From NCBI GenBank assembly GCA_045580085.1, contig JAZNND010000014.1, positions 9,498 to 73,497 of the forward strand: a DNA stretch of 64,000 bases. The letters are read 5' to 3'. Position 1 is the stretch's first letter. Every line of letters starts with the position of its first letter. Source of the DNA: Eubacteriales bacterium (GTDB lineage Bacteria; Bacillota; Clostridia; Oscillospirales; CAG-272). This document shows positions 35,882-54,531 of this stretch, in pieces. The position numbers were made by a program, and so were the translations under genes. The notes beneath the pieces are model-generated. The model made no database searches. It was not told the DNA's origin and saw only the letters and a program-made list of their open reading frames with translations.

Positions 35882-38239
35882 ATGAAAAAGCAGATACATA
35901 TGATTGGAAACACCCATTTCGATCCTGTTTGGCTTTGGCGTTGGGATGAGGCGTTGGCTTCGATCCGCGCGACCTTTCACGCGGCTCTTGAGCGCATGAA
36001 GGAGGACGAGGATTTTGTGTATTCCTTTTCGGCACCTGCTGTTTTGCGCATGATCGAAGAGGTCGAGCCCGAGCTGTTTGCCGAGATCAAGGCAAGAGTC
36101 AAGGAGGGCAGATGGGAGCTCGGCGAGGGGCTTTGGCTTCAACCCGATTGTGAGAGTGGCGGCGGAGAGATCTACGTCAGAGAGGGGCTTTATGCCCAAA
36201 GGTATTTTCTTGAAAAATTCGGCATGACGAGCGAGACCGCCTTTAATATCGATTCCTTTGGCCATCCTGCAACCTTCCCTCAGATTCTTGCGGGATGCGG
36301 CATGAAAAATTATGCTTTCGTTCGACCGGGTGAGCAGGCATTTCACCTGCCGTCTCCCTATTTTATTTGGCGCGGCATTGACGGCACCGAGCTTGTTGCT
36401 GCCCGTGCCGAAAACGCGTATCCTCCGAAGCTCGAAGAGCAAACGCTTCTTCCGATGCTTCAAGATGAACAAAGACCGGAGCACAGCTTTATCGTTTACG
36501 GTGTAACCGACCACGGCGGAGCTCCCACCAAGGCGGATATGGCAACCATTCGCCGCTATCGGGATGAGGGGGTATATTATTCGCGCTGTGACAGCTTTTT
36601 TGATGCTTTGCGCAATACCGATCTTCCTACGGTGGAGGGGCATTTGCCCGTCAACTTCATCGGTCCTTCGGTCAACCATACCGAGGTTAAACAGAATAGC
36701 CGTATGGCGGAAGAAAAGCTTTTGCGAGCAGAGGCGGCGGCGACCATGGCGTGGAATCTTTGCGGTAAGAGTTACCCGAGAGAAAAGCTTTACGAGGCGT
36801 GGGCGGATGCCATGTTCAACACCTTTCACGATATCGTGGGCGGATGCTGCATTCCCTCCGCGTATCTCGACGCACGCAATCTTCATGGCAGAGCCATGCA
36901 AACAGCCGATGAAATTGCACACTATTCTTTGCAAACCATTGCTTCGAATATTAAAATGCCGGGTAAAAATCCCGATAACGCATGGAATTTGGTGCTGTTC
37001 AACACCAACGGCGTAGACGGCAGAACCGTCGTTGAGGCAGAGGCACAATGGGCATGGGAATTTGACTGGTACCGCGACGGACTCTGTTTGAAGACCGAAA
37101 ACGGCGAAGAGATTCCCGTACAAATCATTCGTGAGGAAAGCGTGATTCCGGGCTTCCGTTCCCGTATGGTTTTCGAGGTGGATATGCCGGCTTACGGCTA
37201 CCGCACCTTCGCGCTTTGCCAAAAAGGTGGCAGACCGCAGCTTTGCGAGTCCAACGACCGCAAGGAGGTTTCGATCGGTGCTTACACCGTTCGCGCCGAA
37301 AAGAACGGCGGTGTGACGCTCAAATGCGGTAAGCGCACTTATAAAGGACTTTTCCGCCCTTATCTGCGCCGCGATATTTGCGACACATGGGGGTTCAATA
37401 AGACCACGTACGAAAGAAAAAAGGAATTCTGCCGTTTGCTTTCAACCTCTGTCATCGAGGAGGGAAGCGAGAGAGTCGCGCTTAAGACGGTGTGTTTGTT
37501 CCATCATTCCAAGATTGAACAGACCTTCCTTTTGTATGCCGACGGCATGCTTGAATGCCGTTACCGCGTTCTTTTCTCGGAAGAGGGGTACGGCTTGAAA
37601 CTTGCACTCGGCGCAAAAGAAAAGACGGCAACCGTGACTGCCGCCGAGCCCTATGGGTACACGGCGCGCCCTGCCTCTTTCTATGAGAAGCCTGTGAGTG
37701 GCTTTCTCTCCTTTGGCGAGGTAGGTGTTGTTTCGGGCGATATTTTTGCTTATGATTTTGACGGTGATGCGGTTGGGCTTTCGATCTTGCGCTCTCCCAT
37801 TTACGGCGATTTACGTAATGAACCGCTTGCGCCTCGAGACGATTACATGTATATGGGGCAGGGGGAAACGCACGGCACGCTTCGCGCCTTCTTTGACGCC
37901 CCCACGCCCGCCCGCTTGGCACGGGAATCGGCAAAGCTTTTGCGCCCCGTTACGGTAATTGATGAGGCGTGCCATGACGGCGTATTGCCTGCCGAAGGCA
38001 TTTGTGTGCACAGCGACGGCGAAGATGTCATCGTTACCTCTTTGAAGCTTGCCGAGGACGGCGACCGTCCCACCTTCCGCGCTGTGGATTACAGCGGCAC
38101 GGACAGCCGTGTTTCTGTTACTGTTTTTGACCGTACGCGCCGTTATTCTTTCCGTGCGCACGAGATCAAAACGGCGGTTAATATGGAAGAAACCGATCTT
38201 TTGGAACGCCGTGGAGACGATGAATCGCTCAAGGTGTGA
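35882..38239 (+). CDS. Glycoside hydrolase family 38 (alpha-mannosidase-like)
   Basis: 'IGNTHFDPVWLWRW', 'IDSFGHP', 'YGVTDHGGAPT', 'FHDIVGG'. Confidence 0.9.
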   Translation: MKKQIHMIGNTHFDPVWLWRWDEALASIRATFHAALERMKEDEDFVYSFSAPAVLRMIEEVEPELFAEIKARVKEGRWELGEGLWLQPDCESGGGEIYVREGLYAQRYFLEKFGMTSETAFNIDSFGHPATFPQILAGCGMKNYAFVRPGEQAFHLPSPYFIWRGIDGTELVAARAENAYPPKLEEQTLLPMLQDEQRPEHSFIVYGVTDHGGAPTKADMATIRRYRDEGVYYSRCDSFFDALRNTDLPTVEGHLPVNFIGPSVNHTEVKQNSRMAEEKLLRAEAAATMAWNLCGKSYPREKLYEAWADAMFNTFHDIVGGCCIPSAYLDARNLHGRAMQTADEIAHYSLQTIASNIKMPGKNPDNAWNLVLFNTNGVDGRTVVEAEAQWAWEFDWYRDGLCLKTENGEEIPVQIIREESVIPGFRSRMVFEVDMPAYGYRTFALCQKGGRPQLCESNDRKEVSIGAYTVRAEKNGGVTLKCGKRTYKGLFRPYLRRDICDTWGFNKTTYERKKEFCRLLSTSVIEEGSERVALKTVCLFHHSKIEQTFLLYADGMLECRYRVLFSEEGYGLKLALGAKEKTATVTAAEPYGYTARPASFYEKPVSGFLSFGEVGVVSGDIFAYDFDGDAVGLSILRSPIYGDLRNEPLAPRDDYMYMGQGETHGTLRAFFDAPTPARLARESAKLLRPVTVIDEACHDGVLPAEGICVHSDGEDVIVTSLKLAEDGDRPTFRAVDYSGTDSRVSVTVFDRTRRYSFRAHEIKTAVNMEETDLLERRGDDESLKV

Positions 38240-38267: not shown

Positions 38268-38297
38268 TTGACAAGCGGAAAGGGATTATGCTATACT
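38268..38297 (+). promoter_or_regulatory. Sigma-A promoter of the leuA-like/ACS1 operon
   Basis: TTGACA-18 bp-(TGn)TATACT. Confidence 0.75.
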
Positions 38298-38325
38298 CAT
38301 TGCATCAAAAAAAGGAGATACCGAT

Positions 38326-38418
38326 ATGGCACGCGCAATTGCAATGGCACTCGAGCTATCCGCTGTGATCCTAACGAAGTCTGTTCGTATGGGTGACAGT
38401 GTTGTTTGTCGTGCATGA
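38326..38418 (+). CDS. Putative 30-aa attenuation leader peptide MARAIAMALELSAVILTKSVRMGDSVVCRA
   Basis: Strong RBS AAAGGAG. Leu codons are CTC, CTA, CTA. Sits between the promoter and a terminator. Not in the ORF track. Confidence 0.65.
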   Translation: MARAIAMALELSAVILTKSVRMGDSVVCRA

Positions 38419-38463
38419 ATTGGCGTATCGGCAGCGGTATTTACCAAAGCTATAAGTGAATCC

Positions 38464-38505
38464 AATTCCCACGCGCTTCGCTGCGCCGTGGGAATTTTTA
38501 TTTTT
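38464..38505 (+). terminator. Attenuator terminator in the leader
   Basis: AATTCCCACG...CGTGGGAATT followed by TTTATTTTT. GAATTGG (38417-38423) can pair instead with CCAATTC (38462-38468). Confidence 0.7.
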
Positions 38506-38535
38506 AAATCGGCATGAGCCGAAAGGAGAAAAACT

Positions 38536-39936
38536 ATGCAGAACATTCATATCACAGATACCACGCTTCCCAAGAGAGAAGAGAGTGGAAACGCCGCCTA
38601 CAGCTTCCGCGAGAAGATTGAAATCGCGAAAACGCTTGACCGTATCGGTGTTTCGGTTATTGAAATGCCCCCCTTTACGGGCAGCCGTGCCGACATCCTT
38701 CTTTTGCACACGGTGCTTCCTGTGGTAAAAAACGCTGTTCTTTCCTGCCGTCCCGCTTTGAATGAAAGCTCTGTTGCCGCTGTGTGCGATGCCATGAAGG
38801 GCTATAAGAACGCTCGCGTTCATATCGCGGTGCCGACCTCTCCCGTACAGATGGAATATCATTGCCATAAGAAGCCCAAGCCCTTGATGGAGCTTGTGGA
38901 AAAGCTGATCCAAACCGCTATGTCTGCCGGTTTTGAGGTAGAGTTTTCGGCACTCGATGCTACCCGCGCCGAAAAGGAATTTCTCTACGAAGTGCTCTCG
39001 CTTGCCGTCAAGGCGGGCGTGAAATACATCACCCTTTGCGATAGCGAGGGAATCATGCTCCCCGATGAATTTGCCGCTTTTGTTTCCGATGTGAAGAAAA
39101 ACGTGGCACTCGCTGATTGCGAGATCGGCGTGGAATGCTCCGATTTTCTGCATATGGGCTGTGCGCTCGCCGTTGCCGCCATCGGCGCGGGGGCTGTGAC
39201 GGTGAAGACCGCTGTCGGTGTGGATGGAACTACCCCCCTGCCTGCGTTTGCTTCCGTTTTGAAGATGAGAGGGGATTCTCTTGGCATCACCTCGTCGCTG
39301 AACGGTGCAAGCCTTGGCAAAACCGCCGCCAAGATCACTGCCATGACCAACGCTTCGCAAGCTGGAAAAGCGGCGATCGGCGAAAATGACGCCGCAAGCC
39401 TCGTGCTTCGCAACACCGATGATGAAAAGACGGTTGCTTCCGCGGTAGCCGCCCTCGGATACGATCTTTCCGAGGAGGATATGCACAAGGTTTACGAGAG
39501 CTTCAAACGTCTGTCCGAAAAGAAAACCATAAGCGGTGCCGAGCTTGATGTTATCGTAGCCAGCAGCGCGCTTGAGGTTGCTCCTACTTTTGTCTTGAAG
39601 AGCTATTCCGTGACGTCGAGCAACGTTATTTCCGCATCGGCTCATATCGAGCTTGAAAAAGACGGCGCGCTCCTTCGCGGTATCAGCCTTGGTGACGGCC
39701 CCGTTGACGCCGCCTTCCGTGCGATTGAACAAATCGTGGGCCACCGTTTTGAGCTTGACGATTTCGGCATTCGTGCATTGACCGAAGGGCAAGAGGCTGT
39801 CAGTGAGACGGTTGTCCGTCTGCGTGCGGGCGGCAAGATCTATTCCGGCAGAGGCGTTTCCACCGACATCATCGGTTCGAGTGTCCGCGCCTATATCAGT
39901 GCCCTCAATAAGATCTGCTTTGAAGAAATGCTTTGA
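38536..39936 (+). CDS. LeuA (2-isopropylmalate synthase)-like protein with a degenerate active site and retained C-terminal regulatory domain
   Basis: DTTLPKREE replaces DTTLRDGEQ, ECSD replaces HCHND, and GERAGN is absent. 'GDGPVDAAFRAI...GRGVSTDIIGSSVRAYISALNK' is intact. Confidence 0.85.
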   Translation: MQNIHITDTTLPKREESGNAAYSFREKIEIAKTLDRIGVSVIEMPPFTGSRADILLLHTVLPVVKNAVLSCRPALNESSVAAVCDAMKGYKNARVHIAVPTSPVQMEYHCHKKPKPLMELVEKLIQTAMSAGFEVEFSALDATRAEKEFLYEVLSLAVKAGVKYITLCDSEGIMLPDEFAAFVSDVKKNVALADCEIGVECSDFLHMGCALAVAAIGAGAVTVKTAVGVDGTTPLPAFASVLKMRGDSLGITSSLNGASLGKTAAKITAMTNASQAGKAAIGENDAASLVLRNTDDEKTVASAVAALGYDLSEEDMHKVYESFKRLSEKKTISGAELDVIVASSALEVAPTFVLKSYSVTSSNVISASAHIELEKDGALLRGISLGDGPVDAAFRAIEQIVGHRFELDDFGIRALTEGQEAVSETVVRLRAGGKIYSGRGVSTDIIGSSVRAYISALNKICFEEML

Positions 39937-39962
39937 TCGTAAAGCAGAAAAGGAGAAACAGC

Positions 39963-42440
39963 ATGAAATTATCATTTTCCACCAACCGTTGGAAGGACAC
40001 CACCATGTCGGAATTCTTCGCCATGGCGAAGGAATACCGTTTTTCCGGCGTTGAAATTCACAGCATAGAGGACTTTGGAGAAAAGGAATGCTCCGCCTTG
40101 TATCATGAGGCGATGGCACTGAACCTTTCCATTGCCTGCCTTGATATGGGTGCCGATATCGGTGCCGCCGATGATACCGCCGCGAAGGAAGAGCTTTCGG
40201 CTTGCATTGCCGCCGCGCACAGATTGCATACCCCATACCTTCGTTTGCGTGCAGGCAAGGGCGAAGGCGCAGTAGAGAACAGCGAAAAATTCCTCACATA
40301 CGCCTTGGAAGAGGCACACAAAGCCGATCTTGTGCTTCTTATTGAGACGGTTGGCGCGTATGCCGATACGGGCGTTCTTGCGAATACGCTTCGCCGTTTT
40401 GCGGATGACTCTTTGGGTGCGCTTTGGGATGTTTACTATCCCTATACCGAAGCGGGTGAGAGTGCCGAAAAAACCATCCAGAACCTCGGTGCTGCCGTGA
40501 AGCACGTTCATATGAAGGATGCGGACGGCATGGATGAATTCCGCCCCGTGGGGGAAGGAAAGATGCCCCTTGCGGATTTTATGAACGCATTACGCTCTGT
40601 CAATTACGACGGATTTATTTCCGCCGAGTGGGATCCCGATTGGATGGAGGAGCTTGCGGATGCTTCTATCATCTTCCCTCATTTTGTAACCTACATGTCG
40701 CGGTATAAGGATCCTTCTCGCAATGTTGTGTCGCTGTATGAAAACAAGGCGAAAACGGGTAAGTTCGTTTGGAAAAAAGAAACGCTGATCGAAAAGACCT
40801 TCGGTCAGGTGCTTGATACCATGGTGGAGCTTTTTCCCGATCAATACGCTATCAAGTATACGACGCTTGACTACACGCGTACCTATGCCGAGTTCCGCGA
40901 CGACGTCGATACCTTCGCGCGCGCCCTTGTTTCACTCGGTGTGCGTGCGGGTAGCCATGTTGCACTTTGGGCAACCAACCTTCCCGAGTGGTACATTGCC
41001 TTTTGGGCGACCACCAAGATCGGTGCGGTTCTGGTTACCGTCAATACCGCTTACAAGATTCATGAAGTGGAATATCTTTTGCGTCAATCGGATACCCATA
41101 CGCTGATTCTCGAACAGGGATACCGTGATTCTCATTACGATGAGATTATCGCCGAGCTTTGCCCGGAGTTGGAAAATACCAAGCCGGGCGAACCGCTTCG
41201 TTCGCGCCGCTTGCCTTTCCTTCGCAATGTCATTACCATCGGCTATAAGCAAAAAGGGTGCCTTTCCTTTGATGAGACGGTTGCCCGCGCCGACCGTGTG
41301 CCTCAAGAAGAAGTCAATCGCATGGCGGCTGCGGTGGATATCCACGACGTTTGCAACATGCAATACACCTCCGGCACCACAGGTTTCCCCAAGGGCGTTA
41401 TGCTGACGCATTACAATGTTGTCAACAACGGCAAGTGCATCGGCGACCGTATGGATCTTTCTACCGCCGATCGGCTTATGATTCAAGTGCCTATGTTCCA
41501 CTGCTTCGGCATGGTGCTTGCCATGACCGCCTCCATGACACACGGCGTTACCATCTATCCCTTACCTTACTTCTCTCCGAAGCCTGCGCTCGCTTGCATT
41601 CATAACGAGCACATCACTGCTTTCCACGGTGTTCCTACCATGTTTATTGCTCTCTTGGAACATCCCGATTTCCCCAAGACCGATTTCTCGTATATGCGTA
41701 CGGGTATCATGGCGGGCTCACCTTGCCCTATTTCGGTTATGGAGGACGTTGTCAACAAGATGCACATGTCCGAGATTACCATCGTTTACGGGCAGACCGA
41801 GGCATCTCCCGGATGCACCATGAGTTCGACCGACGATCCGCTTGAGGTGCGTGTCGGTACCGTCGGCAGAAATCTGCCCGAGATCGAGTGCCGCATTGTA
41901 GATCCCGAGACGGGTGAAGAGCTCCCCGACAATGTAACGGGTGAGTTTGTAGCGCGCGGTTATAACATCATGAAGGGATATTATAAGATGCCCGAAGCAA
42001 CCTCTAAGGCAATCGATGCCGAAGGTTGGCTCCACACGGGCGACTTGGCTTGCCGCACCCCCGAAGGCAATTACCGTATTACGGGCCGCTTGAAGGATAT
42101 GATCATCCGCGGCGGCGAGAACATTTATCCCAAGGAGATCGAGGAATTTATTTATACCCATCCGAAGGTCAGCGATGTACAAGTCATCGGTGTGCCCGAC
42201 GAGCAATACGGCGAGGAAATCATGGCTTGCATCATTTTGAAAGAGGGCGAGAGCATGACCGAACAGGAAATGAAGGACTATGTGCTTGCGCATATGGCAA
42301 AGCATAAGGTGCCGAAATATATCGATTTTGTCGATGCCTTCCCGATGAATGCCGCAGGTAAGATTCTTAAGTATAAGATGCGTGAGGATGCCGTAGAAAA
42401 GCTTGGTTTGCATAAAGCTGCCAAGATCGTTACCGCGTAA
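39963..42440 (+). CDS. Acyl-CoA synthetase (ACS1, AMP-binding) with fused N-terminal AP_endonuc_2-type TIM barrel
   Basis: N-terminal 'LLIET', 'LWDVYYP', 'HVHMKD', 'SAEW'. C-terminal 'YTSGTTGFPKG', 'YGQTE', 'WLHTGDLA', 'RLKDMIIRGGENIYP', 'AAGKI'. Confidence 0.9.
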   Translation: MKLSFSTNRWKDTTMSEFFAMAKEYRFSGVEIHSIEDFGEKECSALYHEAMALNLSIACLDMGADIGAADDTAAKEELSACIAAAHRLHTPYLRLRAGKGEGAVENSEKFLTYALEEAHKADLVLLIETVGAYADTGVLANTLRRFADDSLGALWDVYYPYTEAGESAEKTIQNLGAAVKHVHMKDADGMDEFRPVGEGKMPLADFMNALRSVNYDGFISAEWDPDWMEELADASIIFPHFVTYMSRYKDPSRNVVSLYENKAKTGKFVWKKETLIEKTFGQVLDTMVELFPDQYAIKYTTLDYTRTYAEFRDDVDTFARALVSLGVRAGSHVALWATNLPEWYIAFWATTKIGAVLVTVNTAYKIHEVEYLLRQSDTHTLILEQGYRDSHYDEIIAELCPELENTKPGEPLRSRRLPFLRNVITIGYKQKGCLSFDETVARADRVPQEEVNRMAAAVDIHDVCNMQYTSGTTGFPKGVMLTHYNVVNNGKCIGDRMDLSTADRLMIQVPMFHCFGMVLAMTASMTHGVTIYPLPYFSPKPALACIHNEHITAFHGVPTMFIALLEHPDFPKTDFSYMRTGIMAGSPCPISVMEDVVNKMHMSEITIVYGQTEASPGCTMSSTDDPLEVRVGTVGRNLPEIECRIVDPETGEELPDNVTGEFVARGYNIMKGYYKMPEATSKAIDAEGWLHTGDLACRTPEGNYRITGRLKDMIIRGGENIYPKEIEEFIYTHPKVSDVQVIGVPDEQYGEEIMACIILKEGESMTEQEMKDYVLAHMAKHKVPKYIDFVDAFPMNAAGKILKYKMREDAVEKLGLHKAAKIVTA

Positions 42441-42520: not shown

Positions 42521-43306
42521 ATGATTATCGACGCACATTGCCACATATATCCCGATGCCATTGCTTCGCGCGCCGTGGCGGGGATCGGCAATTTTTATAA
42601 CATGCCGTTGCTTTACGACGGCACATTGGCGACGCTGAACGCCGCCCATGCGGCAAACGGCATCACGCATGCTGTCATTTTTTCGGTGGCGACAAAACCT
42701 TCTCAAACAGCGGGTATCAATCGCTTTATTGCCGAAAACGTGTCGGCTTCGAACGGCCGTTTTGTCGGACTTGGTACACTCCATCCGGACAGTGAAGACA
42801 TTAAGGGAGACATAGAGCACATTTTGGAGCTTGGATTGCGCGGTGTTAAATTGCATCCCGATATTCAACGCTTCAAGATCGATGACTACAGGTGCCTTAA
42901 AATCTATGAGCTCTGCGAGGGGAGACTTCCCGTTCTTTTGCATTGCGGCGACCACCGTTTTGATTTTTCCAATCCCAATCGCTTACGCCCTATCTTGGAG
43001 ATCTTTACCGAACTTCAAGTGATCGGCGCACATTTCGGCGGTTGGTCGGTTTGGAATGAGGCGGAAGATATGCTCAGCGGATTTTCCAATTTTTCGGTGG
43101 ATACCTCTTCTTCCTTCTATGCGCTCACACCCGAAAAAGCAACCGAAATTGTCCGCAAATTCGGTGCGGACCGCGTGATGTTTGCTACCGATTATCCCAT
43201 GTGGGATATCGGGGAAGAACTGGGGAGATTTTATAAGCTTTCTTTAACGGAGGACGAGAGGGAAGCGGTTCTTTGGCGCAACGCTGCCCGCATTTTTGGA
43301 TTTTAA
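42521..43306 (+). CDS. Amidohydrolase family protein (Amidohydro_2)
   Basis: 'IIDAHCH', 'GVKLHP', 'LHCG', 'AHFGG', 'FATDYP'. Confidence 0.88.
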   Translation: MIIDAHCHIYPDAIASRAVAGIGNFYNMPLLYDGTLATLNAAHAANGITHAVIFSVATKPSQTAGINRFIAENVSASNGRFVGLGTLHPDSEDIKGDIEHILELGLRGVKLHPDIQRFKIDDYRCLKIYELCEGRLPVLLHCGDHRFDFSNPNRLRPILEIFTELQVIGAHFGGWSVWNEAEDMLSGFSNFSVDTSSSFYALTPEKATEIVRKFGADRVMFATDYPMWDIGEELGRFYKLSLTEDEREAVLWRNAARIFGF

Positions 43307-43453: not shown

Positions 43454-43467
43454 CATGACATAATTGA

Positions 43468-43722
43468 AAAAGGCTATGACGAAGACGGACGAAGACGAGT
43501 GCTTCCAGAGAGTCGGTGGCGGTGTGAATCCGACAGTTACCCCCTTCAGTTCCCATCCCTTCTGAGCCGAAGTCCCCAACGCATCTGCAAGTAGGGCCTT
43601 CCGTATGGCTGCGTAAAAGCACGGAGCTTGTTTGAGCTCGCAGAGAGGCACCTTTGGTGCAATTTGAGTGGTACCGCGGATAATTTATTACCCGTCTCAA
43701 AGAAATTTGAGACGGTTTTTTT
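43468..43722 (+). ncRNA. T-box riboswitch, predicted Ile specifier (AUC at 43555-43557)
   Basis: Stem I K-turn GGCTATGACGAAG...CTTCTGAGCC, CAGAGA and GGTGTGA distal motifs, T-box AATTTGAGTGGTACCGCG (43661-43678), terminator CCGTCTCAAA/TTTGAGACGG followed by T7. Confidence 0.9.
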
Positions 43723-43751: not shown

Positions 43752-46016
43752 ATGAAAAACACGGTAAATTCTTTGGCGGAGGTTGCGGCACGTATCCGCG
43801 AGATGCGTGAGATTTTAGGCTTCAGTACCGCAGAAATGGCAGAAAAGACGGAAGTCGAAAAAGAGCTTTACGAGGAATACGAAAAGGGTGAGACCGATCT
43901 TCCTTTTTCCTTTATTCATAAATGCACGTTGGCATTCGGCGTAGACATTGCGGACCTTTTGGAAGGTAACAGCGCAAAGCTTTCTTCCTATACCGTTACG
44001 CGCAAAGGAAAAGGTCAGTTGACAGCCAAGGAAAACGGCATTGAGATTTCCAATATGGCGCCCCGTTTCCGCAACAAGCTTGCCGAACCTTATTGGGTTC
44101 GTTATGAATATTCAGAGGAACTTCAAAACCGCCCCATTCATACCACCACCCACGGCGGTCAGGAGTTTGACCTCGTGATCAGCGGTTCTTTGAAGGTGCA
44201 GATCGGTGAGCATACTGTTGTTTTGGAGGAGGGGGACAGCATTTACTATGAAAGCGGTACTCCCCACGGCATGATCGCTGTCGGCGGCAAGGACTGCGTG
44301 TTCTGCGCTGTCGTTCTTCCCGACGAGGATGTGTCCGATGAAAAAGAGATCGAAAAGTCCATCGTTACTGCAGGGGCTAAGCGTGAGCTTTTGATCAACA
44401 AGTTCATCAAGTGCAAAGAAAACGAAGAGGGTGTTTTGACCGAGATTTCTTTCACGGATGACGATAAATACAATTTCGCCTTTGATACCGTTGACGCTAT
44501 CGCGGATAAATATCCCGATAAGCTTGCGATGCTCCACGTTGCCAACGATAAGTCCGAACGCCGCTTCACATACCGTGACATCAAGCGCGAGTCCAACCGT
44601 TGCGCCAATTATTTAAAGTCTCTCGGCATCGGCAAGGGAGACCGCGTGGTCGTTGTTCTGAAAAGACATTATGAGTTCTGGTTTGCGATTCTCGCGCTTC
44701 ATAAGCTCGGTGCTGTTGCCATCCCCGCAACCAACCAGCTTAAGGCGCATGACTTTGTTTACCGCTTTAAGTCCGCAGGCGTTAAAGCCATCCTTTGCAC
44801 CGCCACCGATAAGACTGCGGAAGAGGTCGATATCGCAGCTGCCGAATGCCCGACGCTTACGGCGAAGATCCTTGTGAACGGCGACCGTGAGGGCTGGCAT
44901 AATTTCGGCGAAGAGTATAAGCTTTACAGTACGCATTTCGAACGCACCGCCGACGCGGCATGCGGAAACGATCCTATGATCATGTTCTTTACCTCGGGTA
45001 CGACCGGTTATCCGAAAATCGCCATGCACAGCTATAAGTATGCCCTCGGTCATTTTCCGACGGCACGCTATTGGCATGACATCCGCCCCGAGGATTTACA
45101 CTTGACCATTTCGGAAACCGGTTGGGGCAAAGCCCTTTGGGGCAAGCTTTACGGACAGTGGATGTGTGAAGGTGCGGTTTTTGTCTACGACTTTGACCGC
45201 TTCAATGCTTCCGATATCCTTCCGATGTTCTCGAAATATCATATCACCACCTTCTGTGCGCCTCCCACCATGTACCGTATGCTCATCAAAGACGATCTTT
45301 CGGGATACGATCTTTCGAGCATTCGCCACGCAACCACCGCGGGCGAGGCACTCAATCCCGAGGTGTTCTATCAGTTTAAAAAGGCGACCGGGTTGACTAT
45401 CATGGAGGGCTTCGGACAGACAGAAACCACCCTCACCATCGGCAATTTGGTCGGCACCACGCCCAAGCCCGGCTCTATGGGTAAAGCGATGCCGCTTTAC
45501 GATATCGATATCGTGGATACCGACGGTAATCCCGTCGGCACGGGTGAAAACGGTGAGATCGTTGTTCGCACCGACAAGCGTGTTCCCCCCGGACTCTTCC
45601 TCGGTTATTACAACGATGAGGAGAAAACGCATGACGCATGGCACGACGGTATGTATCATACGGGCGACGTTGCTTGGAGAGACGAGGACGGCTTCTTCTG
45701 GTATGTCAGCCGCATCGATGACGTCATCAAGTCCTCCGGTTACCGCATCGGTCCGTTTGAGATCGAGAACGTCATCATGGAGCTGCCTTATGTGCTTGAA
45801 TGCGGTGTTTGCGCCGCGCCCGATGAGGTCAGAGGGCAAGTAGTCAAGGCTTGCATTGTGTTGACCAAGGGCACCGAAGGCACCGATGCACTCAAAAAAG
45901 AAATTCAAGAGTATGTAAAAACGCATACGGCACCGTATAAATATCCCCGTATCGTTGAATTCCGTACCGAGCTTCCCAAAACCATCAGCGGTAAAATCCA
46001 ACGCAATAAGCTCTAA
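43752..46016 (+). CDS. XRE-HTH/cupin/medium-chain acyl-CoA synthetase fusion (ACS2)
   Basis: N-terminal 'RIREMRE...EMAEKT', cupin 'THGGQEF...GDSIYY...PHGM', then 'FTSGTTGYPK', 'GFGQTE', 'YHTGD', 'KSSGYRIGPFEIE', 'SGKIQR'. Confidence 0.92.
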   Translation: MKNTVNSLAEVAARIREMREILGFSTAEMAEKTEVEKELYEEYEKGETDLPFSFIHKCTLAFGVDIADLLEGNSAKLSSYTVTRKGKGQLTAKENGIEISNMAPRFRNKLAEPYWVRYEYSEELQNRPIHTTTHGGQEFDLVISGSLKVQIGEHTVVLEEGDSIYYESGTPHGMIAVGGKDCVFCAVVLPDEDVSDEKEIEKSIVTAGAKRELLINKFIKCKENEEGVLTEISFTDDDKYNFAFDTVDAIADKYPDKLAMLHVANDKSERRFTYRDIKRESNRCANYLKSLGIGKGDRVVVVLKRHYEFWFAILALHKLGAVAIPATNQLKAHDFVYRFKSAGVKAILCTATDKTAEEVDIAAAECPTLTAKILVNGDREGWHNFGEEYKLYSTHFERTADAACGNDPMIMFFTSGTTGYPKIAMHSYKYALGHFPTARYWHDIRPEDLHLTISETGWGKALWGKLYGQWMCEGAVFVYDFDRFNASDILPMFSKYHITTFCAPPTMYRMLIKDDLSGYDLSSIRHATTAGEALNPEVFYQFKKATGLTIMEGFGQTETTLTIGNLVGTTPKPGSMGKAMPLYDIDIVDTDGNPVGTGENGEIVVRTDKRVPPGLFLGYYNDEEKTHDAWHDGMYHTGDVAWRDEDGFFWYVSRIDDVIKSSGYRIGPFEIENVIMELPYVLECGVCAAPDEVRGQVVKACIVLTKGTEGTDALKKEIQEYVKTHTAPYKYPRIVEFRTELPKTISGKIQRNKL

Positions 46017-46081: not shown

Positions 46082-46101
46082 ATCCATATAAAAGAATAAT
46101 C

Positions 46102-46368
46102 AAAGGCATTGACGAAGAGGATGCTTGGCACAGCTTACAGAGAACCGGCGGTTGGTGTGAGTCGGGAGTGGGTGTCTTGCGGTCGGTAGCTTCCGAGCCG
46201 ATGGGAAGAAAGCGTTTCGCCGTAGAACCCATCCGTGATTGCTGCGTTAAGGCATAGGGCTTAATGGAGTCCGAGAGTGGCACCTATGGTGCAATTTGAG
46301 TGGTACCGCGGGATAAGTTTCTTATACCCGTCTCAAAGTCGTCAGTATCTTTGAGACGGGTTTTCTTG
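46102..46368 (+). ncRNA. T-box riboswitch, predicted Val specifier (GUA at 46186-46188)
   Basis: GGCATTGACGAAG...CTTCCGAGCC, CAGAGA and GGTGTGA motifs, T-box AATTTGAGTGGTACCGCG (46293-46310), terminator CCCGTCTCAAAG/CTTTGAGACGGG followed by T4. Confidence 0.9.
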
Positions 46369-46418: not shown

Positions 46419-48716
46419 ATGGAACAACAGATCACAGGTCTTGATCTCAAGATCAGGGAAATGGCATCCCGTATCCGCGCTTTGCGTGAGATCGAGGCAC
46501 TTTCCGTTGCTGACATGGCGAAAAAGACCAATGTCAGTGAGGCGGAATACTTAGCTTGTGAAAACGGCGAGAGCGATTTGAACTTTGCTTTCATCTACCG
46601 TTGCGCACTTGCGTTCAATGTGGACGTTACCGATATTATTGAAGGTACGAGCCCCAAGCTCGGTGCTTTCACTGTGACGAGAAGCGGAGAAGGGCAGCGC
46701 ATTGAGCAGGCGCATGGCATGGTTTATTATAACCTGGCACCTTCTTTCCGTAACCGTATTGCCGAGCCTCTTCTTGTACGCGCCGCATACAGCACTGATG
46801 CCGAGCATGCCGATATTGAGCTAACCACCCATGACGGGCAGGAGTGCGATATTGTTCTTAAAGGTTCTCTTAAGGTGCAGGTCGGTGAACATAAGGTCGT
46901 TCTTCACGAAGGTGACAGCATTTATTACGATTCGTCTACGCCGCACGGTATGATCGCCGCGGAGGGAGAGGACTGTCTCTTCTACGCCTTTGTGCTCAAT
47001 CCCTCGGGCGAACCTATTCCCGAGCTTGAGACTTCGACCAAGGCTTCCGTTGTGGATAAGCCTCGCAAGAAAGAGAGTAAAGAGCCTCGCGTATACGATA
47101 AATGGGTGGATGCCGAGGAGGATGAGAACGGTGTTCTCAAAAAGATCTCCTTCCGTAACGCCGAAAAATTCAATTTTGCTTTCGATATTGTTGATGTTCT
47201 TGCGAAAGAAAAGCCGGATAAGCTCGCCATGCTTCATCTTGACAGAGATAAGACCGAGCGCCGCTTTACCTTCCGTGATATCAAACGCGCTTCCAACCAG
47301 TGCGCGAACTATTTCAAGTCTCTCGGCATCAAAAAAGGCGACCGCGTCATGCTGGTGCTCAAACGTCACTATCAGTTCTGGTTTGCCATGCTTGGACTTA
47401 ACAAGCTTGGTGCCATTGTTATTCCCGCCACCAATCAGCTGAAATCTCATGACTTCAGCTACCGCTTCGGTGCCGCCGGTATCAGTGCCATTCTTTGCAC
47501 CTCGGATGCCGAAACGGTGAGCGAAGCTGAGATTGCGCTTGCCGAGTCTCCTTCCGTTGTTCACCGTATCATTGTCGGAGAAGCACGTGAGGGTTGGCGC
47601 AACTTTGACGATGAGTATACGCTTTACAGCACTCATTTCCACCGCACCGCAGAAAGTCCTTGCGGCGACGACTTGATGCTCATGTTCTTTACCTCGGGCA
47701 CCACGGGTTATCCCAAGATTGCCGCACACAATTATAAGTACGCGCTTGGGCATTTCTTAACCGCTAAGTATTGGCACGGTGTAAACCCCGAAGGGCTTCA
47801 CTTCACCATCTCGGATACCGGATGGGCAAAGGCAATGTGGGGTAAGCTTTACGGTCAGTGGATGGCAGAGGGCGCAACCTTTGTATATGACTTTGTCCGC
47901 TTCAGCGCGGCGGATATTCTTCCCTTGTTTGCTAAATATCATATCACTACTTTCTGTGCGCCTCCTACTATGTACCGTATGATGATCAAGCAAGATCTGA
48001 CGAAATACGATATGACTTCCGTAGAGCGCGCGACCACCGCGGGCGAGGCACTCAACCCCGAGGTATTCCGTCAGCTTGAAAAGCTCATGGGGCTTAAGAT
48101 CATGGAAGGCTTCGGTCAGTCCGAGTGCACGCTCATGATCGGTAATTTGCTCGGTGATTCGCATAAACTCGGCTCGATGGGTAAACCTGTTCCGCTTTAC
48201 GATGTGGATATCGTGGATCCCGACGGTAAGAGCGTCGGTGTCGGTGAAACGGGTGAGATCGTTGTACATACCGAAAACGGCGCACCTTGCGGTCTGTTCA
48301 CGGGCTACTATCTGGACGAAGAAAAAACGCGTGACGCATGGCACGACGGTCTTTATCACACGGGCGATACCGCGTGGAGAGACGAGGACGGATTCTATTG
48401 GTATGTCGGCCGTGTGGATGATGTCATCAAGTCCTCCGGTTACCGCATCGGTCCGTTTGAGATCGAGAATGTTATCATGGAGTTGCCTTATGTTCTTGAG
48501 TGCGGCATTTCCGCGGCTCCCGATCCTGTCAGAGGTCAGGTTGTCAAGGCAAGCATTGTTTTGACCAAGGGAACGGAAGGCACGGAAGAGCTGAAAAAAG
48601 AAATCCAAGAGTACGTCAAGCAAAAGACAGCACCTTACAAATATCCCAGAATCGTTGTATTCCGTGATGAATTGCCCAAGACCACCAGCGGCAAGATCAT
48701 CCGCAACAAGCTTTGA
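46419..48716 (+). CDS. XRE-HTH/cupin/medium-chain acyl-CoA synthetase fusion (ACS3), paralog of ACS2
   Basis: Same domain order and motifs as 43752-46016. Confidence 0.92.
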   Translation: MEQQITGLDLKIREMASRIRALREIEALSVADMAKKTNVSEAEYLACENGESDLNFAFIYRCALAFNVDVTDIIEGTSPKLGAFTVTRSGEGQRIEQAHGMVYYNLAPSFRNRIAEPLLVRAAYSTDAEHADIELTTHDGQECDIVLKGSLKVQVGEHKVVLHEGDSIYYDSSTPHGMIAAEGEDCLFYAFVLNPSGEPIPELETSTKASVVDKPRKKESKEPRVYDKWVDAEEDENGVLKKISFRNAEKFNFAFDIVDVLAKEKPDKLAMLHLDRDKTERRFTFRDIKRASNQCANYFKSLGIKKGDRVMLVLKRHYQFWFAMLGLNKLGAIVIPATNQLKSHDFSYRFGAAGISAILCTSDAETVSEAEIALAESPSVVHRIIVGEAREGWRNFDDEYTLYSTHFHRTAESPCGDDLMLMFFTSGTTGYPKIAAHNYKYALGHFLTAKYWHGVNPEGLHFTISDTGWAKAMWGKLYGQWMAEGATFVYDFVRFSAADILPLFAKYHITTFCAPPTMYRMMIKQDLTKYDMTSVERATTAGEALNPEVFRQLEKLMGLKIMEGFGQSECTLMIGNLLGDSHKLGSMGKPVPLYDVDIVDPDGKSVGVGETGEIVVHTENGAPCGLFTGYYLDEEKTRDAWHDGLYHTGDTAWRDEDGFYWYVGRVDDVIKSSGYRIGPFEIENVIMELPYVLECGISAAPDPVRGQVVKASIVLTKGTEGTEELKKEIQEYVKQKTAPYKYPRIVVFRDELPKTTSGKIIRNKL

Positions 48717-49378
48717 TGAATATGAAATACGAACCTAAACGAATTACACTTTTTGCAGGGCATTACGGCAGTGGAAAAACCAACATCGCCGTAAACTATG
48801 CTTTGCAATTGGCGAAAAACGGCATGCCCGTAACCATCGCCGACCTTGATATCGTCAATCCTTATTTCCGCACCAAAGACAGTGCCGCAGAACTTGAGGC
48901 GGCAGGTGTTCGCCTCATTTCCTCTGCCTATGCAAACTCCAATGTCGATTTGCCCGCCTTGCCGGCTGAGCTGTATGCTTTGACGGAGGACAAAAGCCGT
49001 TACGCCGTGTTTGACGTTGGCGGCGACGACAGAGGCGCACTGGCACTTGGCAGATACGCACCCGCCATCAAGGAGGAAGGGAAGTACGAAATGATTTTCG
49101 TTGCCAACTTCTATCGCCCCTTGACGCGAAACGCCGAAGAGGCACTTGAGGTGATGCGTGAGATTGAGGCGGCGGGCGGTATCCCCTTTACGGGAATCGT
49201 TCATAACTCTAACGTCGGTCCCGAAACGACTCCCGATGATATTCGCGCCAAAAGCGCGGAAGCGGAAAAACTATCCGCGATGGCGGCTTTGCCCATTCTC
49301 TTCACCGCGGCGGAAAGCACGGTGGCAAAGGGCATGGACAACACGTTGCCGCTTGATTTGCAAAAGAAAATTTTTTAA
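48716..49378 (+). CDS. P-loop ATP-binding protein (MinD/ParA/CobQ-like) at the head of the oxidoreductase genes
   Basis: 'GHYGSGKTN', 'DLDIVNPYFR', 'DVGGD'. TGATG stop/start overlap with ACS3. Confidence 0.8.
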   Translation: MNMKYEPKRITLFAGHYGSGKTNIAVNYALQLAKNGMPVTIADLDIVNPYFRTKDSAAELEAAGVRLISSAYANSNVDLPALPAELYALTEDKSRYAVFDVGGDDRGALALGRYAPAIKEEGKYEMIFVANFYRPLTRNAEEALEVMREIEAAGGIPFTGIVHNSNVGPETTPDDIRAKSAEAEKLSAMAALPILFTAAESTVAKGMDNTLPLDLQKKIF

Positions 49379-49397
49379 ATAAAGGACGGAATGAAAA

Positions 49398-49604
49398 ATG
49401 GCAAAAGTGACATTTAATACCGACCTTTGCAAGGGCTGCGGGCTTTGCGTCGATGCTTGCCCGAAGAAACTGCTCGTGATTGCGAAGGATAAGATCAACA
49501 AGAAAGGGCATTCTCCTGCCGAAATGACCGATATGAGTAAGTGCATCGGTTGCGCCTTCTGTGCGACCATGTGCCCCGATTGCGTCATTCGTGTTGAGAA
49601 ATAA
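49398..49604 (+). CDS. 2[4Fe-4S] ferredoxin-like delta subunit of 2-oxoacid:ferredoxin oxidoreductase
   Basis: CKGCGLCVDACP and CIGCAFCATMCP. Confidence 0.93.
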   Translation: MAKVTFNTDLCKGCGLCVDACPKKLLVIAKDKINKKGHSPAEMTDMSKCIGCAFCATMCPDCVIRVEK

Positions 49605-49617
49605 GGAGGAAAAAGAA

Positions 49618-50679
49618 ATGTCTGAGAAAGTACTTATGAAGGGCAACGAGGCGATTGCGGAGGCTGCTATTTTGGCAGGTTGCCGCCATTACTTCGGCTA
49701 CCCCATCACCCCTCAAACCGAGATTGCCGCTTATATGGCAAAACGCATGCCCAAGATCGGCGGCGTATTTCTCCAAGCGGAGAGTGAGATCTCCGCGATC
49801 AATATGGTTTACGGTGTTGCAGGCGCGGGACTTCGCGTAATGACCTCCTCCTCCAGCCCCGGAATTTCGCTCAAGAGCGAAGGCCTTTCCTATCTTGCGG
49901 GCAGTGATCTTCCCGCACTGATCGTCAATGTCCAGAGAGGCGGCCCCGGTCTCGGCGGTATTCAGCCCTCCCAGTCCGACTATTTCCAAGCCACTCGCGG
50001 CGGCGGCCACGGTGACTATCATATGCTGGTATATGCGCCTGCTTCCGTTCAGGAAATGGCTGATTTGACCGTTCTTGGTTTTGAGAAGGCAGACGAATAC
50101 CGTATGACTGCCATGATCCTTGCTGACGGTACGATGGGCCAAATGATGGAGCCTGTTGCGCTTCCCAAGGGCGAGAGCCGTACCTTCCCGAAGCCTTGGG
50201 CTTTGACGGGTACCGGTTGCGAGCGTAAGCACAATATCGTCAACTCCCTTTTCCTCAAGCCCGAAACGCTTGAGAAGGAGAATTTCGCGCGTTATGAGCG
50301 TTACCGTAAGATCGAAGAGACAGAAGCTATGTATGAGTCCTTCATGATGGAAGATGCAGAATACTGCGTTGTTGCCTTCGGTATCGCCGCGCGCGTATCC
50401 AAAAACGCCATCGTAGAAGCACGCAAAGCGGGCGTTAAGGTCGGTATGATCCGTCCTATCACCGTTTGGCCCTTCCCGAAGGCACCCCTTGCCGAGGCTG
50501 CAAAGCAAGTCAAGGCATTCCTTTCCGTAGAGCTTTCCATGGGGCAGATGATCGAAGACATCGAGCTGGCTACCCGTTGCGCACGTCCTGTGCTTCTTTG
50601 CAACCGTGCGGGCGGCATGATCCCCTCGCCCGAGGAAGTTTACGCGAAAATCATGGATATGGCAAAGGAGGTAAAATAA
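49618..50679 (+). CDS. vorB: 2-oxoisovalerate (3-methyl-2-oxobutanoate):ferredoxin oxidoreductase alpha-type subunit
   Basis: 'GNEAIAEAAI', 'YPITPQTE', 'SSSSPGISLK', 'RGGPGLGGIQPSQSDYFQ', 'VELSMGQM'. ATG at 49618 follows GGAGG. Confidence 0.85.
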   Translation: MSEKVLMKGNEAIAEAAILAGCRHYFGYPITPQTEIAAYMAKRMPKIGGVFLQAESEISAINMVYGVAGAGLRVMTSSSSPGISLKSEGLSYLAGSDLPALIVNVQRGGPGLGGIQPSQSDYFQATRGGGHGDYHMLVYAPASVQEMADLTVLGFEKADEYRMTAMILADGTMGQMMEPVALPKGESRTFPKPWALTGTGCERKHNIVNSLFLKPETLEKENFARYERYRKIEETEAMYESFMMEDAEYCVVAFGIAARVSKNAIVEARKAGVKVGMIRPITVWPFPKAPLAEAAKQVKAFLSVELSMGQMIEDIELATRCARPVLLCNRAGGMIPSPEEVYAKIMDMAKEVK

Positions 50680-50680
50680 G

Positions 50681-51433
50681 ATGAGCATCGTATTTGATAA
50701 GCCCAAGTCTTTGGCGGATGTTCCCTTCCATTACTGCCCCGGATGCACCCACGGTATCATTCACCGTTTGGTGGCTGAGGCGATTGATGAGCTTGGTATT
50801 GAGGGTAAGGCTATCGGCGTAGCCCCTGTAGGCTGTGCTGTTATGGCGTATGACTATTTTACCTGCGATATGATCGAGGCGGCACACGGCCGCGCACCCG
50901 CCGTTGCGACGGGTATCAAGAGAGGCAGACCTGACAATATTGTATTCACCTATCAGGGTGACGGCGACCTTGCCTCCATCGGTATGGCAGAGACCGTACA
51001 CGCCGCCGCAAGAAACGAAAACATCACCATCATCTTCGTTAACAATGCCATTTACGGTATGACGGGCGGTCAGATGGCCCCCACCTCGCTTCCCGGTCAG
51101 GTTACGCAGACCTCGCCTTACGGCAGAGACGTTAAGGTGCAAGGCTATCCTGTTAAGGTTGCGGAGCTTCTTTCGGCACTTGACGGACCTACCTATATCG
51201 AGCGTGTTGCCGTAAACAATGTTAAAAACGTAAAGAATGCGAAGAAGGCGATCCTCAAAGCATTCCGCAATCAGGTAGAGGGCAAGGGCTTCTCTCTTGT
51301 TGAAGTCGTTTCTTCCTGCCCCACCAACTGGGGTATGACGCCCTCGAAGGCACTGCAATGGGTGGATGAAAAGATGATCCCCTACTATCCTCTCGGCGTA
51401 TACCGCGACAAGACTGCCGACGAAGGCAAATAA
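50681..51433 (+). CDS. 2-oxoacid:ferredoxin oxidoreductase beta (ThDP-binding) subunit
   Basis: 'HYCPGCTHG', 'AHGRAPA', 'YQGDGDLASIG...NNAIYGMTGGQ', 'CPTNW'. Confidence 0.92.
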   Translation: MSIVFDKPKSLADVPFHYCPGCTHGIIHRLVAEAIDELGIEGKAIGVAPVGCAVMAYDYFTCDMIEAAHGRAPAVATGIKRGRPDNIVFTYQGDGDLASIGMAETVHAAARNENITIIFVNNAIYGMTGGQMAPTSLPGQVTQTSPYGRDVKVQGYPVKVAELLSALDGPTYIERVAVNNVKNVKNAKKAILKAFRNQVEGKGFSLVEVVSSCPTNWGMTPSKALQWVDEKMIPYYPLGVYRDKTADEGK

Positions 51434-51453
51434 GAGAAAGGAAGGATACAGTT

Positions 51454-51993
51454 ATGAATACCACGAATCTTCTTATTGCAGGCTTCGGCGGACAGGGTGT
51501 TCTGTTTGCGGGCAAGTTTATCGCTTATAAAGGGCTCCTTGAAGGCAGACAGCTGAGCTGGCTCCCCTCTTACGGTCCCGAGATGCGCGGCGGCACCGCA
51601 AACTGCAGTGTAATCCTCAGTGACGATCCCGTCGGCTCTCCCATCGTTTCGAATCCCGATGTTCTGATGGTTATGAATCTCCCTTCTCTTGATAAATATG
51701 AGGATGCGGCAGTCAAGGGCGCAAAGATCTTTATTGACTCCACACTCATCGAGAGAAAGGTGCGCCGCACCGATGTCTCCGCTTACTACATCCCCGCGAC
51801 TCAGCTTGCCAAGGATGCCGGCTTCCCCACGCTTGCCAACATGATTATGGTTGGTAAAATGATTCGTGAAAGCGGCCTTATTTCCTATGACGGTTTGCGC
51901 GAGGCACTCGGTAAAGTTGTTTCCGCAAAGCATGCCGACCTTCTTGAGGTTAACCTCAAGGCGATCGAAACAGGCTATAATTACGAAGGCTGA
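51454..51993 (+). CDS. 2-oxoacid:ferredoxin oxidoreductase gamma subunit
   Basis: 'AGFGGQGVL', 'PSYGPEMRGGTANC'. Confidence 0.92.
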   Translation: MNTTNLLIAGFGGQGVLFAGKFIAYKGLLEGRQLSWLPSYGPEMRGGTANCSVILSDDPVGSPIVSNPDVLMVMNLPSLDKYEDAAVKGAKIFIDSTLIERKVRRTDVSAYYIPATQLAKDAGFPTLANMIMVGKMIRESGLISYDGLREALGKVVSAKHADLLEVNLKAIETGYNYEG

Positions 51994-52019
51994 TTTTCGA
52001 TAAAGAAAGGGTAAAAACA

Positions 52020-53095: not shown

Positions 53096-53130
53096 GGGCT
53101 GTCATATTCGACAGCCCCTTTCTCCTCTTT
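53096..53130 (+). terminator. Terminator after ilvE (GGGCTGTC-family hairpin)
   Basis: GGGCTGTC-ATATTC-GACAGCCC followed by CTTT. Confidence 0.65.
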
Positions 53131-54508: not shown

Positions 54509-54531
54509 TTACAGAAAGGAAGGACATACCG

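Follow-up and report, generated by a model that had tools for sequence, protein, structure and literature searches.

The 64,000-nucleotide (nt) stretch considered here, which we call the window, comes from a Eubacteriales bacterium of the Oscillospirales lineage CAG-272 (assembly GCA_045580085.1, contig JAZNND010000014.1, positions 9,498 to 73,497 of the forward strand). It carries a gene for a LeuA-like protein in which the catalytic residues of isopropylmalate synthase (IPMS) have been lost and the C-terminal regulatory domain has been kept. We propose that this protein is a descendant of LeuA and now acts as a leucine-sensing allosteric partner of the acyl-CoA ligase encoded directly downstream, a reading to which we assign about an even chance; that it binds leucine, that it touches the ligase and in which direction it acts are the parts of the proposal that we infer. 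A first-pass annotation made from the letters alone had suggested a repurposing of this general kind. A wider version of the proposal holds that a clade of gut and rumen Clostridia has swapped de novo branched-chain amino acid (BCAA) synthesis for a three-armed salvage regulon, with a catalysis-stripped LeuA as a HisZ-like sensor on an isovalerate-CoA ligase, and this version we put forward a little more tentatively, at slightly below an even chance.

The open reading frame (ORF) of the LeuA-like gene is uninterrupted and has a strong coding signal in a codon-usage model. Its 466-amino-acid (aa) product matches the HMGL-like domain (Pfam PF00682, residues 4-254, 121 bits) and the LeuA_dimer domain (PF08502, residues 333-460, 102 bits), in agreement with the full-length LeuA architecture that the first-pass annotation had described. 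Both scores against the LeuA equivalog models of NCBIfam fall below the cut-off (281.6 bits against 532 for the best, NF002086, and 251.5 bits against 598.7 for TIGR00973). We aligned the protein with the solved Neisseria meningitidis IPMS (3rmj) and, in a second alignment, with seven bona fide LeuAs and five CimA-like proteins, all encoded in genomes of the same order. In both alignments the DTTLRDGEQ of LeuA becomes DTTLPKREE and the metal-binding HCHND becomes ECSDF, the HxH being replaced by ECS, and GERAGN, including its Asn, is gone through a four-residue deletion. All three losses had been read from the sequence in the first-pass annotation and stand for the window's protein. As a rule for the family, however, the first of them fails in part: most members retain the Arg and have lost the D-G-E-Q part, the stretch after TL(R) is variable, and the window's protein has Pro in place of the Arg. 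The alignments also show that the His of TSxxH is replaced by Gln, that AED reads A(L/M)D and that the Glu of VEC is Lys.

A deletion of 29 residues removes the accessory subdomain I, the HESGIHQxG region ('AFAHESGIHQHG...YEI..PE'). The AlphaFold model of the protein, built on a 61-row alignment, is confident (pLDDT 89.4) and comprises, in order, the barrel, a long helix, a disordered segment (residues 278-287), subdomain II and the pair of beta-beta-beta-alpha modules in the regulatory domain; the place of subdomain I is taken by just the long helix and the disordered residues. The model comes closest in structure to IPMS, MAM and LeuA; for 3rmj the root mean square deviation is 1.8 Å over 277 columns. 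In MtIPMS, according to the excerpted text of PMC10464499, substitutions of R80 and E218 abolish activity. Judged from its sequence, the LeuA-like protein cannot act as a canonical Claisen condensing enzyme. It might nevertheless be asked whether it is still an isopropylmalate or citramalate synthase with an unorthodox active site, given the overall LeuA fold of the model and the apparent control of its operon by leucine starvation. We consider this highly improbable, since the protein has none of the metal ligands, GERAGN or subdomain I, its equivalog score lies far under the cut-off, and the genome lacks LeuB, LeuCD and IlvCD, through which the substrates would be used or supplied.

The regulatory domain, which the first-pass annotation had called well preserved, does retain its signatures (in the window, GDGPVDAA...GRGVSTDII..S..AYISALNK; in the family, GDGP(V/I)DAA, TEGxEA, GRG(V/I)STDI and AYxxALNK), and the GxGPxDA, TEGxxA and GxGxSxD patterns of the LeuA_dimer domain are invariant across the family. 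Columns that are invariant in the seven real LeuAs are kept in 33 of 101 cases in the barrel and in 10 of 16 in the regulatory domain, where D/E or K/Q exchanges account for four of the six changes; a further 22 LeuA-invariant columns are deleted. The relatives of the LeuA-like protein are numerous. A scan with one genome per species confirmed at least 588 of them among 600 candidate stretches, mostly in metagenome-assembled genomes of gut and rumen Clostridia. The best 120 protein matches listed are 457-493 aa long and 47-100% identical to the window's protein, every one has both domains, and in the databases they are named hypothetical or 'IPMS regulatory domain-containing'. In a phylogenetic tree the family forms a single clade (SH-aLRT 100, stem 0.65), with the short-form LeuA of the order as its sister and the CimA-like proteins as outgroup.

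The gene is under strong purifying selection and is not decaying. In 11 non-overlapping pairs (Nei-Gojobori), which share 77-95% aa identity and in most of which dS is close to saturation, the ratio of nonsynonymous to synonymous substitution rates (dN/dS) is 0.03-0.13 over the whole protein; the barrel lies at 0.05-0.17, and the regulatory domain, at 0.007-0.06, is under the tightest constraint. The pair with the least saturation (dS 0.35) has an overall value of 0.075. This is the comparison among orthologs that the first-pass annotation had called for, and it rules out neutral decay in the relatives. A functionless, decaying leuA remnant could explain why the catalytic motifs are gone in a genome that lacks the pathway. 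However, the frame is intact in every locus examined, and the low dN/dS, the spread over at least 588 genomes, the conserved synteny and the dedicated T-box described below lead us to count decay as already refuted, with a probability that is close to nil.

Conservation in the barrel extends to the emptied active site. The positions of the former ligands have been fixed anew in alignment A1 (Q105 and K224 in 100% of sequences, S202 in 97%, D203 in 93% and E200 in 90%); in a 61-genome alignment K224 is still at or above 90%, with looser conservation at H58 and in the C201/S202/D203 triplet. All conserved barrel residues lie on the catalytic face, where the beta strands have their C-terminal ends. 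These features, together with the low dN/dS of the barrel, would suit a neofunctionalised enzyme or small-molecule binder, whose pocket with its new residues serves an extra step in the leucine arm, perhaps with the TIM domain of the ligase and a neighbouring amidohydrolase, while the regulatory domain still gates it. The leucine arm indeed has three extra barrel-type modules that the isoleucine and valine arms do without. Against this, the Asp/His/His metal site is required by every characterised member of the superfamily, subdomain I, needed for acetyl-CoA chemistry (PMC9860122), is deleted, and the substrate-binding Arg is variable and in the window is Pro. The new Lys and acidic residues could merely fill the empty metal site, and no reaction appears to be missing between isovalerate, isovaleryl-CoA, 2-oxoisocaproate and leucine. 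We regard a new catalytic or binding function of the barrel as unlikely, yet as the main alternative.

The second line of evidence is the pairing of the LeuA-like gene with its downstream neighbour. The first-pass annotation had noted a co-encoded acyl-CoA synthetase, ACS1, and such an enzyme is there; however, it is not a plain ligase, since it is fused to an N-terminal xylose-isomerase-like TIM barrel of about 275 aa, and we refer to the fusion as TIM-ligase. Its longest ORF begins at a TTG (39933), and alignment and sequence point to the ATG at 39963, which has an AAGGAG box in front of it and lies 26 nt past the LeuA-like stop, as the likely start. In our own gene calls TIM-ligase lies directly downstream on the same strand in 61 of 73 loci. 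A tblastn search adds 18 loci in which it is cut by a contig end or uncalled, which brings the total to 79 of 81, and in the remaining two (L035 and L036) the contig stops less than 200 nt after the LeuA-like gene. The co-encoding that the first-pass annotation had noted is strict, and VOR-type oxidoreductase and BCAT genes are present in the cluster. An independent sample of 121 genomes gives the same picture, with a TIM-domain match adjoining the LeuA-like gene in 24 of 24 carriers, in a frame of 819-872 aa. The ligase part is 70-86% identical to that of the window and the LeuA-like protein 40-67% identical, and 144 of 445 columns in the ligase part are invariant. The TIM domain retains the conserved residues D159, E176, H191, H193 and D196; a fold search places it generically among ketose epimerases and dehydratases and points to no reaction.

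Strict pairing with short intergenic gaps is also what would be expected of a purely structural partner, that is, an assembly, stabilising or scaffolding subunit of TIM-ligase, perhaps a bridge to the oxidoreductase, with no amino-acid sensing left. The C-terminal tail of the LeuA-like family, newly fixed as ALNKI(C/V)(F/Y)EE, would fit such a role as well. It is hard, however, to explain without a ligand why GDGP(I/V)DAA, TEGxEA and GRGxSTDI should be nearly unchanged in the most constrained region of the protein, and we think a structural role of this kind quite improbable. Prediction of a complex between the full LeuA-like protein and the ligase part (residues 286-819) gave scores of 0.00 and 0.12, against a mark of 0.32, and we use this result neither way.

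The regulation of the gene is the most informative new result. In almost all loci the LeuA-like start is preceded by a non-coding stretch of 300-500 nt, and in most a terminator-like hairpin lies just upstream of the start. Sixty-two aligned leaders show a canonical T-box, with AGAGA, GGUGNNA, GAGCA, AGUA, GGGUGGUACCGCG and a terminator. Among seven loci searched whole, six have an Rfam RF00230 match of 116-130 bits, above the gathering score, immediately upstream of the LeuA-like gene; in the seventh the gene is internal to an operon and the T-box lies further upstream. The specifier position reads CUC followed by A in the three Rfam alignments printed. By motif parsing, a T-box core is present in 51 of 77 called leaders, with 45 CUC specifiers, two CUG, two wrong parses (one of which, L058, reads CUG by eye) and two unparsed; the other 26 leaders are short intergenic regions, contig ends or another leader type. 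The tally over all loci gives 38 leucine, no isoleucine and no valine T-boxes before the LeuA-like gene (two unparsed, one misparsed), and, before the ligase fusions of the two neighbouring arms described below, no leucine, 10 isoleucine and 10 valine T-boxes (nine unparsed, three misparsed). The LeuA-like operon of the relatives is therefore predicted to be leucine-regulated and induced by leucine starvation.

The leader in the window is of the other type. Whether the gathering or the E-value threshold is applied, it has no Rfam match, and it is not a T-box. Its sigma-70-like promoter lines up with TTGACAAG...TAnACT in related leaders, and the leader RNA is strongly structured (minimum free energy z = -4.6), with a small ORF that contains a cluster of Val, Ile and Leu codons, followed by a terminator-like hairpin about 30 nt ahead of the ribosome-binding site of the LeuA-like gene (Table 1). 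Six relatives share this arrangement, with a small ORF and a BCAA codon cluster in the same place: AVIL in L009, LLLSAILRL in L012, IIIGNAIIILPLIII in L017, LILSAESLLL in L029, LLLHVIGRL in L031 and LLGATLLL in L011. The leaders of the window and of these six loci also have in common a conserved TTTGTCGTGC block and a terminator, and no Rfam family matches them. This organisation suggests a leader-peptide attenuator that has replaced the leucine T-box in a sub-clade; an RNA motif is an equally good reading of the common TTTGTCGTGC block.

The third line of evidence is the genomic company of the gene. In the genome that the window comes from (2.46 Mb, 96.5% complete) the LeuA_dimer domain occurs once, in the LeuA-like ORF. 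This genome has no ILVD_EDD (IlvD) and no KARI (IlvC) match, one Iso_dh match (on contig C39) and one aconitase-family protein of 645 aa, which adjoins another HMGL-like gene. By this inventory the genome lacks the isopropylmalate route (LeuB, LeuCD) and the classical BCAA route as a whole, in keeping with the view in the first-pass annotation that the organism has replaced the isopropylmalate route: LeuA, LeuCD, IlvC and IlvD are all absent. The second HMGL-like gene, with a 460-aa frame, sits beside the only aconitase of the genome (G000:C8:861-3953). We take it to be Re-citrate-synthase-like, and with the aconitase and the Iso_dh on C39 it presumably forms a Re-citrate synthase/aconitase/isocitrate dehydrogenase branch to 2-oxoglutarate.

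The same relation holds across the order. In the 121-genome sample, all of whose members are at least 90% complete, 24 genomes carry the LeuA-like gene and 97 do not. Short-form LeuA above the cut-off occurs in 46 genomes, none of them a carrier (0/24 against 46/97), and long-form LeuA (E <= 1e-100) in 35 (1/24, the carrier G091, against 34/97). Either form is found in 80 genomes, one carrier and 79 non-carriers; the latter figure is a union, because G009 has both forms, and counting the contig-cut G028 would raise it to 80. KARI follows suit, with 60 genomes in all, 3 of the 24 carriers and 57 of the 97 non-carriers. LeuA is thus absent from 23 of 24 carriers versus 18 of 97 non-carriers. Carriers fall in 11 of 26 family-level groups, and LeuA-positive members occur in those groups too. 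We give no P value for these counts, since kin in the sample are not independent.

Because of the neighbouring genes, the leucine-, isoleucine- and valine-specific leaders and the absence of the classical route, we propose that the locus encodes a route with three arms that leads from branched-chain fatty acids to BCAA. It looks like one in which the LeuA-like gene heads the leucine arm, and the arrangement fits synthesis of leucine, isoleucine and valine from isovalerate, 2-methylbutyrate and isobutyrate by CoA activation, reductive carboxylation and transamination. Allison's work on rumen bacteria reportedly established such reductive carboxylation of these three acids to the three amino acids decades ago. 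Formation of leucine by carboxylation of isovalerate and subsequent amination in rumen microbes is described in the excerpted text of PMC7356843. In the leucine arm, isovalerate would be converted to isovaleryl-CoA by TIM-ligase, isovaleryl-CoA would be reductively carboxylated to 2-oxoisocaproate, and this would be transaminated to leucine. We suggest that a short-form LeuA descendant lost the metal-dependent Claisen condensation and kept its amino-acid-binding regulatory domain, and that free leucine bound to this domain would throttle the first, ATP-consuming step at TIM-ligase. The retained domain motifs and the leucine T-box both point to leucine as the likely ligand. Such fast end-product control by the LeuA-like protein would add to the slower T-box control, a pairing that would mirror the classical pathway, where LeuA feedback operates alongside leu attenuation.

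The proposal draws on several known systems and departs from each of them. The LeuA-like protein shares with short-form LeuA, which belongs to the DRE-TIM metallolyase superfamily, the (beta/alpha)8 barrel, subdomain II and the C-terminal LeuA_dimer domain, at 28-32% identity to real LeuAs. Unlike LeuA it has no RDGEQ, HxH, GERAGN or subdomain I and stays under the equivalog cut-off, and its gene is not found with leuBCD and excludes real LeuA in 23 of 24 carriers. The closest functional analogy is HisZ, in the excerpted text of PMC9734150 an inactive HisRS paralogue that serves as the regulatory subunit giving histidine feedback to the short-form ATP phosphoribosyltransferase HisG, the first committed enzyme. 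The LeuA-like protein would follow the same logic, being a paralogue without catalytic residues, under purifying selection and co-encoded with a partner (79/81 loci, 24/24 genomes). In contrast to HisZ, the fold is unrelated, the complex and the allostery are hypothetical, and the partner also occurs alone. For the sensor itself, the LeuA_dimer domain of the citramalate synthase CimA is described in an excerpt of PMC13381585 as an autonomous, Ile-binding BCAA sensor. CimA has the same domain architecture as the LeuA-like protein; the CimA-like proteins of the order, however, retain all catalytic motifs and form the outgroup in the tree.

Parallels exist for the leaders and the ligases as well. 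A leucine-rich attenuator peptide is described for Staphylococcus aureus in the excerpted text of PMC5794164. As with the leu/ilv leaders of Firmicutes, a CUC/CUG T-box (in the relatives) or a leader ORF with BCAA codons and a terminator (in the window's clade) precedes the gene, whereas here the leaders would control a ligase-based salvage operon. MbcS, the branched-chain acyl-CoA synthetase of S. aureus, activates branched short acids according to an excerpt of PMC11167679. The MbcS model is the best match of the two ligases fused to a helix-turn-helix (HTH) and cupin domain further downstream in the window, the first of which scores 449 bits, below the cut-off of 850. Unlike MbcS, these ligases carry the HTH-cupin fusion and are linked by their T-boxes to amino-acid rather than lipid synthesis.

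Several observations weigh against the LeuA-like protein being a leucine sensor for TIM-ligase. In the 121-genome sample at least 18 genomes have TIM-ligase and no LeuA-like gene, so TIM-ligase can function without this partner. The isoleucine and valine arms have no equivalent of the LeuA-like protein, and transcriptional control by the T-box could suffice alone. The re-fixed polar residues (Q105, E200, S202, D203 and K224) and the low dN/dS of the barrel suit a working pocket no less than a transmission module, and a leucine-sensing model leaves the TIM domain and the amidohydrolase without an explained role. Contact between the two proteins and leucine binding are both predicted only, and the substrates of the three ligases are deduced from the T-box codons alone. 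A search for longer relatives that fuse the LeuA-like protein to the ligase found none, which is a weak piece of evidence. Finally, the carrier G091 also has a long-form LeuA and KARI.

G091 is the exception to the mutual exclusivity of LeuA and the LeuA-like gene in the sample; its entries are C2:50809-52218, C1:577509-579170 and C1:236179-236673. We fetched 16 of the solo TIM-ligase copies (L090-L105, from G072, G040, G089, G055, G009, G082, G086, G077, G034, G073, G054, G029, G003, G021, G002 and G103). Each stands alone among unrelated genes with no conserved neighbours, a T-box core motif is absent from the upstream 600 nt of all 16, and together they form a clade of their own, with support of 100, separate from the partnered copies. 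Only four positions distinguish partnered from solo copies (W20, P235, L720 and E738), too few for mapping an interface. The solo clade occurs in LeuA-positive genomes.

If leucine sensing by the LeuA-like protein is correct, the protein would be an allosteric module that has outlived its enzyme and been transplanted to the entry point of a new pathway, of interest for pseudoenzyme evolution, for the annotation of genes now called hypothetical and for biosensor or feedback engineering. The genes for BCAA synthesis from branched acids, chiefly the activating ligases and their control, have been poorly defined so far. The locus offers a testable assignment of one ligase to each amino acid, labelled by its T-box codon, and many gut Oscillospirales-type genomes that seem to be BCAA auxotrophs may not be. 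We found no description of this LeuA-like family in open full texts without their supplements, and an earlier mention, for example in tables of T-box regulons, is possible. New here are the pairing with TIM-ligase, the exclusivity with LeuA, the leucine T-box and the isoleucine and valine T-boxes of the neighbouring ligases.

The features of the window around the LeuA-like gene are collected in Table 1. Downstream of TIM-ligase, an Amidohydro_2 protein is the third operon gene in roughly half of the loci, 31 of 67 having it at position +2; its nearest match in a fold search is an uncharacterised protein, and the search points to no reaction. The isoleucine and valine arms follow, each a T-box leader and a ligase. 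Both leaders went unseen in the default Rfam scan of the window because they score below the gathering threshold, and both have GAGUGGUACCGCG where others have GGGUGGUACCGCG. The two ligases combine, in an unusual way, an N-terminal XRE-type HTH and a cupin fused to the enzyme with a T-box of their own, and in these arms the sensor that corresponds to the LeuA-like protein may be the cupin. The block that comes next runs from a CbiA/ParA-like P-loop protein, which may serve the oxidoreductase as a maturation or Fe-S factor, to a class IV (branched-chain) aminotransferase. Of 77 related loci, 27-28 have this gene set beside the LeuA-like gene, and the downstream neighbours overall recur beside it in 19-28 of them.

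Table 1. Features of the window around the LeuA-like gene, in window coordinates.
Feature	Position	Strand	Remarks
GH38 alpha-mannosidase-like gene	35882-38239		directly upstream
Sigma-70-like promoter of the LeuA-like operon	38268-38297	+	TTGACA-18-TATACT, TG-extended; 11/12 matches
Leader	38298-38535		window-type
Leader ORF	38326-38418	+	30 codons (MARAIAMALELSAVILTKSVRMGDSVVCRA); Shine-Dalgarno; Val-Ile-Leu codon cluster
Antisense ORF	38371-40236	-	621 codons; rejected
Terminator-like hairpin and U-run	38464-38507	+	-21.3 kcal/mol, z = -4.5
LeuA-like gene	38536-39936	+	466 aa; LeuA-derived; barrel (residues 1-250) without metal ligands; subdomain I deleted; subdomain II 297-344; LeuA_dimer regulatory domain 353-465
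TIM-ligase	39963-42440	+	xylose-isomerase-like TIM barrel (~275 aa) fused to AMP-forming acyl-CoA ligase
Amidohydro_2 protein	42521-43306	+	third operon gene in about half of loci
T-box leader	43467-43702	+	specifier AUC (Ile); 76 bits, E 6.9e-17, below gathering score 93
HTH-cupin-acyl-CoA ligase fusion	43752-46016	+	MbcS-like; Ile arm
T-box leader	46100-46338	+	specifier GUA (Val); 84.7 bits, E 4.2e-19, below gathering score 93
Second HTH-cupin-acyl-CoA ligase fusion	46419-48716	+	Val arm
P-loop to aminotransferase block	48713-53087	+	components in the next three rows
CbiA/ParA-like P-loop protein	48713-49378	+	221 aa; overlaps stop of Val-arm ligase; in 28/77 related loci
2x[4Fe-4S] ferredoxin	49398-49604	+	68 aa
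2-oxoacid:ferredoxin oxidoreductase alpha, beta, gamma, then class IV (branched-chain) aminotransferase	within 48713-53087	+
Terminator-like hairpin	53096-53117		after the block
Methionine-synthesis genes	53225-55449		O-acetylhomoserine sulfhydrylase-like; homoserine O-acyltransferase

An antisense ORF that overlaps the LeuA-like gene was set aside as a shadow ORF on its poor codon-usage score; its length misleads gene calling. The alpha-mannosidase-like gene upstream is not conserved beside the LeuA-like gene elsewhere, and at the other end of the cluster the methionine-synthesis genes lie past the terminator-like hairpin that follows the aminotransferase.

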